In this document: piece after piece, positions 52,857-55,491 of the stretch | Layout of the letters: the number at the start of each line of letters is the position of its first letter | Numbering within the stretch: the stretch's first letter is position 1 | Source: Escherichia phage Paul | Length of the DNA stretch: 64,000 bases | Sequence record: NC_070992.1 | Direction: 5' to 3' (one strand) | Notes under the pieces: model-generated | Databases searched by the model: none | Seen by the model: only the letters and a program-made list of their open reading frames with translations | Told to the model about the DNA's origin: nothing | Made by a program: the position numbers and the translations under genes

Positions 52857-52887
52857 AACTGCCTCCTAATTAATTTGGCGTCCCCTA

Positions 52888-53400
52888 CTAGGGTAGGTGA
52901 TTCCAAGTGTCACCCCTTATTGCACTACCTAGTGTCGCCCTGTTAACTCCAAACCTTCGAGACATTGCAGCAATACCAAACTCTCTGTCCCTAGGCACAT
53001 AGTTTTCTTTACAGAAATTTATTAACTCTTCTGTAAGTTTTGCATTTGGGCACTCCTCACCTTTTCTTGGCAGGATTAAACCTTCTCTAAATGCATGTTG
53101 TACGTTTCCACTAACTGTCACCCATTCTAAGTTATCCTCAAAATTATTAAACTTATCACCATCGATATGATTTACAACCGGATAGTTGTTTGGATTCTCC
53201 TTGAAAGCTTTAGCAACTAGTTGGTGAATCTTCAAACACTTGTAAACACCTTGCCTACCTCCTATCTTTGTGACATGAGACAGATATCCATTTATAGGAT
53301 TGAGTCTAAGTATTCGATTAGTCCTCTTGCTGAAAAGGCGACCTCTATTACTAATCGAAAACAACTCTTCGTAACCTACTACATCTTTCCACTCTTCCAT
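52888..53400 (-). CDS. HNH homing endonuclease (NUMOD4/HNH_3-like)
   Basis: W.DVVGYEELF.ISN.GR...NGY...HQLVAKAF...VNHIDGDKFNN..NLEWV pattern; next to the tRNA gene. Confidence 0.65.
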   Translation of the reverse strand: MEEWKDVVGYEELFSISNRGRLFSKRTNRILRLNPINGYLSHVTKIGGRQGVYKCLKIHQLVAKAFKENPNNYPVVNHIDGDKFNNFEDNLEWVTVSGNVQHAFREGLILPRKGEECPNAKLTEELINFCKENYVPRDREFGIAAMSRRFGVNRATLGSAIRGDTWNHLP

Positions 53401-53430
53401 TGAGTGATCTCCTTATTTGAGAGTACTTTA

Positions 53431-53506
53431 AGAGGACGGGGAGATTCGAACTCACCAACCTAGAATTTAGAAGATTCTTGCTCTCATCCAATTGAGCTAC
53501 GCCCTC
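53431..53506 (-). tRNA. tRNA-Arg (anticodon UCU), no encoded CCA
   Basis: Folded by hand: acceptor GAGGGCG/CGTCCTC (one G-U), D-stem GCTC/GAGC, anticodon stem AGAAT/ATTCT, loop CTTCTAA, T-loop TTCGAAT; one extra nucleotide in the variable region; 3' end followed by TTAAAG. Confidence 0.7.
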
Positions 53507-53526
53507 TTAAAGTACTCTCTGTTTAA

Positions 53527-54006
53527 CTATTCAAAAACACATTTTACACCTACAACCCCATCTCCGCAGTCGTCACAGATGTGTCGAACTAAAACCTTAT
53601 CTCTTGGTAAGCAAGATCTTAACTCTTCCAACTGATCTCTTTTAATGTTAATACTTTTAACATAAGGGTGGGTGTCGTACATGATGTTCATGATATTTTT
53701 AGGCCAGGTGTAATCTGTTGGTTCCCCACAGGTACAACACCATCTCCAATTTATTACATCAATATCTTTTAACCTCTCCTCCTCTTCTCTGACTAAGGCC
53801 TCCTGTTCCTCCAACAACCTCAGCCTTTCTTTTAGTATTTTTTGATTTCTTTCTTCCTTCCTGTTTTCATGTGCCTCTTTTTGATCTTTTATGAAAAGCC
53901 AAACTCCGACACATAAAGCAGTCCAGATTATTGCGTTGACTATAGCTATGGTTTCCTCCAGATTTAGATCATATCTCGCTTGGTGATATGACCACATGTT
54001 TTGCAC
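53527..54006 (-). CDS. membrane-anchored coiled-coil protein with C-terminal zinc ribbon
   Basis: TM segment AIIWTALCVGVWLF, Glu/Arg/Lys-rich helix, then CCTCG ... CDDCGDG cysteine pairs. Confidence 0.35.
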   Translation of the reverse strand: MQNMWSYHQARYDLNLEETIAIVNAIIWTALCVGVWLFIKDQKEAHENRKEERNQKILKERLRLLEEQEALVREEEERLKDIDVINWRWCCTCGEPTDYTWPKNIMNIMYDTHPYVKSINIKRDQLEELRSCLPRDKVLVRHICDDCGDGVVGVKCVFE

Positions 54007-54561: not shown

Positions 54562-54969
54562 TTATTCGAGATCTCTTAGTTGTTCAGCCAATTGTTCGCA
54601 CTCATTGATGCAGAACTCTTCTGTTCTTGGAACCCCATTAGGGTTGAACCGTGTCTTATCACCTGCATGGGCACAATCAAATCCGATTGCATCTAAACCA
54701 CCCATCTCTTCAAGGGCATCTTGCCATGTGACACCACCATGAACGTTCACATAACAAACAACCTTTTCCTCTCCGTTATATCCGGTGAAGTTTTTATGTT
54801 TCAAACTATCTGGTAACTCTACATACCCACATAAGTGGGAATTGTTCATGTGCATAATCACAGCACGAAGACCTGATTTAGTTTCCCAACTTTTAACTAT
54901 GCGTCTCATATAAGCACCTCTTGTTAGTTTAAGTAAGAGTTGTCCCTTAATTAAAACAACAAAGGCCAC
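54562..54969 (-). CDS. hypothetical protein
   Basis: 135-aa ORF; probable start at the internal MRRIVKSWE. Confidence 0.35.
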   Translation of the reverse strand: MAFVVLIKGQLLLKLTRGAYMRRIVKSWETKSGLRAVIMHMNNSHLCGYVELPDSLKHKNFTGYNGEEKVVCYVNVHGGVTWQDALEEMGGLDAIGFDCAHAGDKTRFNPNGVPRTEEFCINECEQLAEQLRDLE

Positions 54970-55491
54970 CCATTTGGGCAGCCTTTTATTTGTTAACTGT
55001 TATATGTCCAACTACCTTGCTTGTTACGGATGGCTGACATTGCATGAACCCAGAAGCCTTCCAGTTTCAGAGCACCGTTAGCTACTGCATCCATACGTTC
55101 AGGGCGGTTCATACGTTTGGTTGATACTTTCATACCTATCTCTCTTTGTTAGTGGAGGCATTATTGCCAGTTGACATAAGGGATAGCCCTAGTCAGTAGA
55201 CTAATCCTGACCGCGTACTCATTGCCGACCTTCTCTGCCTAAGAGTTCAGGTTCTAGAGCTATCTCTTATTCCAACTGGTGAAGACTCCCTACCCCTAGG
55301 AAGTCTCCTGAATCCCAAAACCAATATGTACCCCTACATATCAGAAAGTCTTTCGAAATTAACAGGTTTTAGTCTAACACCGGATGTTCGAGCAAGCTCT
55401 CCCTAGCGGTGTGGCATATGCCTGAATTAATAAGTTAATGAGGAACACCCTCACATAGCCCTCTGATAAACACAAGGGCTATAAGTCGGTG

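Follow-up and report, generated by a model that had tools for sequence, protein, structure and literature searches.

How a phage comes to hold a tRNA gene with no encoded CCA beside an HNH endonuclease gene, and what would complete the 3' end of such a tRNA, are questions raised by the tRNA-Arg(UCU) locus of Escherichia phage Paul (NC_070992.1), of which we analysed a stretch of 64,000 nt (hereafter the window). A preliminary description of the window had coupled this tRNA to a phage nucleotidyltransferase bearing a motif of CCA-adding enzymes. The explanation that we consider probable is a different one: the tRNA would be a functional decoder of AGA (and AGG) codons that forms one mobile unit with an HNH homing endonuclease, and this unit would have overwritten a resident tRNA gene. 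The elements on which the argument turns are the following.

53431..53506, minus strand: tRNA-Arg(UCU) gene, 76 nt (ARAGORN and Rfam).
53507..53519, minus strand: 5' leader arm GAGAGUACUUUAA of a leader-trailer helix (inverted repeat and fold).
53419..53431, minus strand: 3' arm of the helix, formed by discriminator U73 and the trailer UAAAGUACUCUC, at the place of CCA.
52888..53400, minus strand: HNH endonuclease gene, 170 aa, NUMOD4 and HNH_3 domains, I-HmuI-like.
52889..53961, minus strand: segment of 1073 bp without a phiEco32 counterpart (blastn against phiEco32).
52876..52892, minus strand: remnant CCTAGTAGGGGACGCCA, the last ~17 nt, CCA included, of a resident KBNP1711-type tRNA-Arg.

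ARAGORN identified a single tRNA in the window, a tRNA-Arg(tct) at 53430..53507 on the minus strand, and the Rfam model RF00005 matched exactly 53431..53506 over its full length (model positions 1-71) with 53.6 bits, against a gathering score of 29 (E=1e-08). The locus was therefore called by both predictors, at the place and on the strand given in the preliminary description. The 78-nt ARAGORN register, which leaves three nucleotides between the acceptor and D stems, was rejected in favor of the 76-nt Rfam register, because in the latter U8 and A9 precede the D stem. The minimum-energy fold is a cloverleaf (z = -3.98), and the extra nucleotide and T-stem mismatch reported earlier are real, being treated in the Rfam model as a single U that bulges from the T stem, a position that holds U or C in related copies. 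After the 3' strand of the acceptor stem, CGTCCTC (CGUCCUC in the RNA), the gene reads T(73)-TAAAGTACTCTC, with the trailer UAAAGU at the place of CCA. The earlier statement that CCA is not encoded was thus borne out; the lack concerns the gene rather than the mature RNA, and CCA must be added enzymatically after transcription. Inspection of the Rfam alignment showed A20, C35 and U36 to be present, together with the discriminator U73. The identity elements of E. coli arginyl-tRNA synthetase are A20, C35 and U36/G36, with A/G73 as a minor element.

The neighboring gene, likewise described before, encodes a protein that exceeds the Pfam cut-offs for NUMOD4 (38.0 bits; cut-off 23.4) and HNH_3 (25.4 bits; cut-off 24.8) and belongs to PHROG 59 (E = 2.8e-43). 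Its ATG at 53400 lies 30 nt downstream of the tRNA and is preceded by a ribosome-binding site, AAGGAG, at 53409-53414. The exact protein and homologs 83-95% identical to it were found on five metagenomic contigs (L003, L062, L063, L064 and L065), one of which is a 77.8-kb kuravirus genome, and all five carry a tRNA of identical type exactly 30 nt upstream of the HNH gene. The genes upstream of this pair differ among contigs, as do the extra genes between the HNH and lipoprotein genes. Of the phage records with the flanks of the window, 70 in all, none has the cassette, which is present in the window and the five metagenomic contigs. On these comparisons, the tRNA and the HNH gene travel together as a unit. 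Searches with the tRNA by megablast and blastn against 50,697 phage records returned only generic matches to the tRNA-Arg core (80-86% over ~58 nt), and none of these records holds the 1073-bp segment. The exact anticodon-arm pattern had no match in IMG/VR, and in metagenomes and genomes it was found only in Armatimonadota-type tRNA-Arg genes, which have other acceptor and T arms and no flanking helix.

The flanks of the tRNA set it apart further. The acceptor stem runs on without a break into the leader and trailer, where GAGAGUACUUUAA pairs with U73 and UAAAGUACUCUC in 13 Watson-Crick pairs, giving a continuous helix of 20 bp with one G-U; acceptor stem included, the arms of the inverted repeat span 53419-53438 and 53500-53519. 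The chance of 13 in-register Watson-Crick pairs is ~2e-8, and among ~100 other tRNAs in the fetched loci leader-trailer runs did not exceed 8 pairs and were mostly of 2-4. All 34 base pairs of the extended cloverleaf are kept in five distinct copies. Only two changes fall within helices, and both are compensatory doubles: a G:C to A:U change in the anticodon stem, with 100% of cells paired (one event among the five distinct sequences), and a C:G to U:A change in the leader-trailer helix, where L063, L064 and L065 have U for C in the leader and, opposite it, A for G in the trailer. Apart from these changes, the five copies vary only at the bulged T-stem nucleotide and at T-loop position 57. The kept pairs and the compensatory changes lend support to the view that the tRNA is functional and that the flanking helix is under selection. 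Sequence similarity between independent contigs sets in precisely where the 5' arm has its outer end. The 20-bp helix provides the roughly two turns of uninterrupted double-stranded RNA, built from leader and trailer, that characterize an RNase III processing stem, and is probably such a stem.

Comparison with related phages indicated what the unit replaced. Around the tRNA, the window is 90-98% identical to phiEco32-like coliphages (Kuravirus, Gordonclarkvirinae), in short pieces only. Collinearity with phiEco32, at 94% identity, extends to 52888 and resumes at 53962, and between these points, which lie between the gp107-like and lipoprotein genes, the 1073-bp insert stands in for 70 nt of the phiEco32 tRNA. 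Past the HNH stop codon, which the remnant overlaps, the sequence continues as CCTAGTAGGGGACGCCA and then AAATTAATTAGGAGG, the 3' end and downstream spacer of the KBNP1711 tRNA-Arg at the same locus. The junction with the resident tRNA falls at the T loop/T stem; by type the remnant belongs with KBNP1711, and no trace of a phiEco32-type T arm is present in the window. The CCA and spacer of a resident tRNA also survive just ahead of the lipoprotein gene in contigs L062 and L063.

Across ten sampled genomes this locus holds six tRNA-Arg(TCT) sequences: the phiEco32/ES17, TH06/SkaterBoy/SR02, KBNP1711, SDYTW1, Ptacy1479 and window types. The sampled tRNA loci (L001, L002 and L014-L019) were those of phiEco32, Ptacy1479, ES17, TH06, KBNP1711, SkaterBoy, SR02 and SDYTW1, and the IMG/VR survey of the lipoprotein locus comprised four loci only. 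The six alleles are 55-77% identical to one another between flanks that are ~94% identical, with the window allele 55-66% identical to the other five; five of the six encode CCA, the window type alone being without it. Ptacy1479 represents an independent invasion, by another new tRNA-Arg and an HNH gene without detectable similarity to that of the window, and retains, of its resident tRNA, the half that runs from the anticodon loop to the 3' end. A published kuravirus comparison mentions only "a single tRNA" where the locus as sampled here holds six allele sequences.

Kuraviruses have a single tRNA-Arg(TCT), usually explained by the share of AGA among phage Arg codons, ~20%, and by the rarity of this codon in E. 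coli (PMC9965538). AGA accounts for 11.8 per 1000 codons in the window, or 21.5% of Arg codons, and for 17.1 per 1000 in the structural-gene region (1-10 kb). The tRNA, which had been described as a reader of the rare AGA codon, fits this heavy use. The two open reading frames (ORFs) of the insert go far above the window average, with AGA or AGG at 11 of 14 Arg codons (52888-53400) and 11 of 12 (53527-54006), which indicates that the cassette's own genes lean most on the tRNA that it carries.

These observations can be joined in the following scenario. Kuraviruses normally hold a CCA-encoding tRNA-Arg(UCU) between the gp107-like and lipoprotein genes; in the lineage of the window, the 1.07-kb insert overwrote this resident tRNA, leaving ~17 nt of it. 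Since a foreign tRNA of identical anticodon came in with the insert, decoding capacity was kept. The unit would spread during co-infection, the HNH enzyme cutting the resident tRNA allele of endonuclease-free relatives and repair copying in the HNH gene together with a cleavage-resistant tRNA. No promoter-like site adjoins the tRNA, which, having no promoter of its own, would be transcribed within an early polycistronic RNA. A double-strand-specific nuclease would most likely then cut the 20-bp helix and free the pre-tRNA; RNase III is the natural candidate, because a leader that is paired along its whole length should block RNase P. The ends would then be finished by RNase P and 3' trimming, after which the host CCA-adding enzyme would add CCA.

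Several points weigh against this explanation. U73 is atypical as a discriminator of E. coli tRNA-Arg, where A or G is usual, so that efficient charging is assumed. Each of the compensatory changes is a single evolutionary event, separating one clade from another, and the covariation of the helix fits a DNA hairpin or cruciform equally well. With the leader paired throughout, RNase P and also RNase Z should be impeded, which makes the order of processing a guess, and the phage nucleotidyltransferase may contribute to CCA addition. As a source of the cassette, the closest tRNA match is only 72% identical, to a tRNA-Arg(TCT) of Asteriusvirus ph0011 that also lacks a complete CCA.

We weighed three rival explanations, each of which is much less likely than a mobile unit of decoder tRNA and homing endonuclease. 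The first holds that the tRNA serves mainly in counter-defense, the turnover of alleles being an escape from host nucleases or toxins aimed at tRNA-Arg rather than a matter of codon supply or homing. At least six alleles, 55-77% identical, do occur between ~94% identical flanks, and colicin D is a toxin that cleaves tRNA-Arg. Phage tRNAs have also been documented as anti-defense cargo amplified by SegB (PMC13096335). Yet the anticodon loop CUUCUAA is common to five of the six alleles, the phiEco32 type alone differing at position 32 (UUUCUAA), and no defense system targeting tRNA-Arg(UCU) was identified in this analysis. Two alleles, moreover, arrived in the company of homing endonucleases, so that turnover needs no host selection to explain it, and heavy AGA use alone accounts for retention of the tRNA (PMC9965538). 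We thus regard counter-defense as an improbable main role.

The second rival is the model of the preliminary description, in which the phage nucleotidyltransferase is a minimal CCA-adding or repairing enzyme acting on the CCA-less tRNA or on ends damaged by host defense nucleases. It concerns the following gene.

34807..36150, minus strand: nucleotidyltransferase, 447 aa, with a conserved N-terminal domain of ~210-235 aa and a variable tail.

The ORF does carry the GGAIRD...DID motif attributed to it (ITGGAIRDAVLNNTAPHDIDIF), and motif A is invariant in its family (G45, G46, R49, D50, D60 and D62 in 26 members), as are Q139, P156, Y193 and K197. The family is small, with 33 representatives among 1.84 billion proteins, and restricted to kuravirus-like phages. 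No invariant Arg or Asp outside motif A was found among the 26 members that would match RRD (motif B) or EDxxR (motif D); the candidate positions read FPxMCR and R-[D/E]-x-x-Y, respectively, and CCA addition cannot proceed without the D and R of EDxxR (PMC11784652). Conservation stops around residue 210-235; the sequence beyond varies across the family and holds no body or tail domain. The C-terminal half (34807-35445) consists of ~210 residues of low complexity rich in Arg, Ser and Gly, and lengths in the family range over 278-482 aa.

Profile searches reached no further than motif A. The Pfam PolyA_pol head (PF01743) gave 19.3-22.2 bits against a cut-off of 23, all four proteins scored singly falling below it, and matched 15 of the 26 members with a best E-value of 0.00025. 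The family profile matched the PDB over the motif A region only (E = 0.0027, residues 37-107), hhalign against E. coli Cca aligned 23 columns, phmmer against the PDB found nothing meaningful and NCBIfam had no match. An AlphaFold model built from the family alignment (predicted local distance difference test, pLDDT, 85.8; predicted template modelling score, pTM, 0.82) found its best structural matches in class II CCA-, CC- and A-adding enzymes and poly(A) polymerase I (PAP I; PDB 1miv, 3h37, 3aql), with only the head superposing (~145-160 residues at 14-18% identity, against enzymes of ~400 aa). By this model, the nucleotidyltransferase appears to be a class II-like head without body or tail.

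The distribution of the gene also separates it from the tRNA. It was found in all 96 matching phage records, in a fixed order of helicase, Pol A exonuclease, nucleotidyltransferase and dCTP deaminase that forms a DNA replication module, and the same order surrounds homologs of 27-30% identity on two further kuravirus-like contigs. The upstream ORF, that of the Pol A 3'-5' exonuclease (36152..36709), ends right against its ATG (36150). The kept adjacency and order hint at a role in replication. Since the enzyme is present in all relatives, while all five other sampled tRNA alleles encode CCA, it predates the CCA-less tRNA and does not track it, and gene content and order point to an old core gene of the replication module, separate from the tRNA. 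CCA-less tRNAs of T4 rely on host Cca and RNase BN, and for the addition of CCA the Cca enzyme of the host is sufficient. In E. coli itself CCA is encoded in every tRNA gene, yet the cell retains a functional CCA-adding enzyme, Cca, with which 3' ends are repaired (PMC5824355).

The proposed link between tRNA and nucleotidyltransferase was consequently not upheld, nor was a body or tail domain found beyond the head of the protein. In favor of the link are the invariant motif A, the class II enzymes and PAP I that lead the structural matches, one database record that calls a close homolog "class II CCA-adding enzyme-like" and the fact that genuine CCA-adding enzymes are encoded by jumbo phages (PMC7824862). 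Set against these are its presence and synteny in all sampled relatives, whose every sampled tRNA allele encodes CCA, its place in the replication module adjoining the Pol A exonuclease, the restriction of the superposition to the head, the Pfam scores under the cut-off, the motif D place without the EDxxR residues (PMC11784652) and a host Cca that suffices. We accordingly give the enzyme model little chance of being correct.

The third rival is least probable: the inverted repeat could act in DNA, as a hairpin or cruciform that marks a boundary or shields the cassette from its own HNH enzyme, or could control the 5' end or translation of the HNH message, as might be suggested by 13 of 13 Watson-Crick pairs that DNA could form equally well, by an outer end of the 5' arm that is the exact start of homology between independent contigs, by an HNH ribosome-binding site 4 nt past the helix and by an analogous repeat in Ptacy1479, but the helix continues the acceptor stem coaxially and exactly, the -1:73 pair included, as expected of an RNA processing stem, and in the window the HNH ribosome-binding site and ATG lie outside it. 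The Ptacy1479 repeat (L002 2900-3010) consists of 12 bp, AAGTTTTCATTG and CAATGAAAACTT, flanking the tRNA-Arg, with a 4x4 internal loop around NCCA. Its 5' arm coincides with the region of the start codon of the HNH gene, which has the opposite orientation, and in the HNH mRNA it could sequester that codon. Given this overlap and its possible regulatory meaning, we gave less weight to the repeat as a further instance of such a helix.

A more far-reaching form of the mobile-unit explanation can be put forward tentatively, and we hold it to be doubtful: the tRNA-HNH pair would be a distinct selfish "tRNA replacement cassette", which destroys the resident tRNA gene and brings a cleavage-immune tRNA of the same anticodon with a built-in processing helix, and on which two unrelated HNH lineages, those of the window and of Ptacy1479, would have converged. 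Compensation for the damage would come from the foreign tRNA carried along rather than from splicing, as with introns; the cassette's own helix would let the tRNA be excised from any polycistronic context, and the CCA-less design would follow from the helix.

The closest known parallel to a mobile unit of tRNA and homing endonuclease is SegB of T4, a homing endonuclease encoded in a tRNA cluster that recognizes the T-psi-C motif (PMC2330249). In both cases, a free-standing endonuclease gene lies beside tRNA genes (PMC2330249, PMC13096335), a tRNA gene is the likely target (the junction in the window falling at the T loop/T stem) and the endonuclease is co-inherited with the adjacent tRNA, replacing markers of the other phage. 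The systems differ in that SegB is a GIY-YIG enzyme and the window enzyme, a predicted homing endonuclease, is of the HNH/NUMOD4 type, and in that the window has a single tRNA locus, in a podophage, where an incoming tRNA that is alike in anticodon but not orthologous has overwritten the resident gene and comes with a leader-trailer helix and without encoded CCA. The resident tRNA-Arg(TCT) of Kuravirus (phiEco32; YF01, PMC9965538) shares locus, anticodon and AGA rationale with the window allele, which differs from it in the missing CCA, the extended helix, the linkage to an HNH gene and an identity of only 55-66%.

The CCA-less tRNAs of T4 resemble the window tRNA in being coliphage tRNAs without CCA in a host whose tRNA genes all encode it; to our knowledge, no fully paired leader-trailer helix has been described for them. 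RNase III processing stems flank the rRNAs in bacterial rRNA operons. Like these, the window helix is a long, perfect pairing of leader and trailer that encloses a structured RNA inside a longer transcript; unlike them, it flanks a tRNA, is a direct continuation of the acceptor stem, amounts to only 20 bp in total and is a presumed substrate of RNase III. As for the nucleotidyltransferase, it shares with class II CCA-adding enzymes and E. coli PAP I (1miv, 3h37, 3aql) the head fold and motif A (GGxxRD...DxD), and differs in lacking RRD, EDxxR, body and tail, in an identity of 11-18% and in being confined to kuravirus-like phages.

Homing endonucleases in phage tRNA regions, of which T4 SegB and the T5-type "HNH endonuclease IV" relatives are examples, phage tRNAs without CCA and the Kuravirus tRNA-Arg are already known. 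New are this allele and the way it arose, in which a resident gene was replaced and left a remnant; so are the close tRNA-HNH unit, found in several contexts, and the leader-trailer helix with its covariation. If the explanation is correct, a homing endonuclease can invade an RNA gene that is essential in its context without an intron, by bringing a replacement gene, and phage tRNA genes are exchangeable alleles, which would explain the 55-77% identity of the tRNAs between near-identical kuravirus flanks. The covarying helix offers a definite substrate with which to ask how a tRNA with paired flanks and a missing CCA is processed in E. coli. For annotation, the kuravirus "nucleotidyltransferase" should not be labelled a CCA-adding enzyme from motif A alone.

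Around the tRNA, a terminator-like hairpin of 11 pairs followed by a T-rich tail was seen at 54961-54986 on the same (minus) strand, ~1.45 kb upstream, and may bound the transcription unit that contains the tRNA. Elsewhere in the window, TAATGTATA, which we take to be the phiEco32 middle/late promoter consensus, occurs in four exact copies (12312, 22144, 22216 and 28382; 0.67 expected), none of them near the tRNA.

Beyond the five contigs, the proteins next closest to the HNH protein (45-55% identical) are encoded within tRNA clusters of Asteriusvirus, Phapecoctavirus and uncultured jumbo phages, and its homologs include the T5-type "HNH endonuclease IV" relatives. In Escherichia phage ph0011 (Asteriusvirus; L058 2182-3169), a 48% identical homolog is located between two tRNA-Ser genes (GCT and ACT; ARAGORN), both preceded by TTCAGTACTGAT, an arrangement that could reflect a similar duplication or replacement.

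One further ORF of the insert lies upstream of the tRNA.

53527..54006, minus strand: orphan ORF (translation; predicted membrane helix).

It encodes an N-terminal hydrophobic helix, a charged, coiled-coil-like stretch rich in Glu, Lys and Arg, and a Cys-rich C-terminus (CCTCG...CDDCGDG). Its start is uncertain, the sole good ribosome-binding site (GGAGG, ~53955) preceding an ATA codon, and no match was obtained by tblastn against phages or in PHROG, Pfam and NCBIfam. In contigs L003, L063 and L064 its place is taken by an unrelated ORF of 189-200 aa, and the orphan ORF is variable cargo outside the conserved tRNA-HNH unit. Cargo is also seen on the other side of the unit, between the HNH and lipoprotein genes, at 3042-3437 in L062 and at 1493-1816 in L063, the latter contig carrying there a Rap1a-like ORF (Pfam PF18602).

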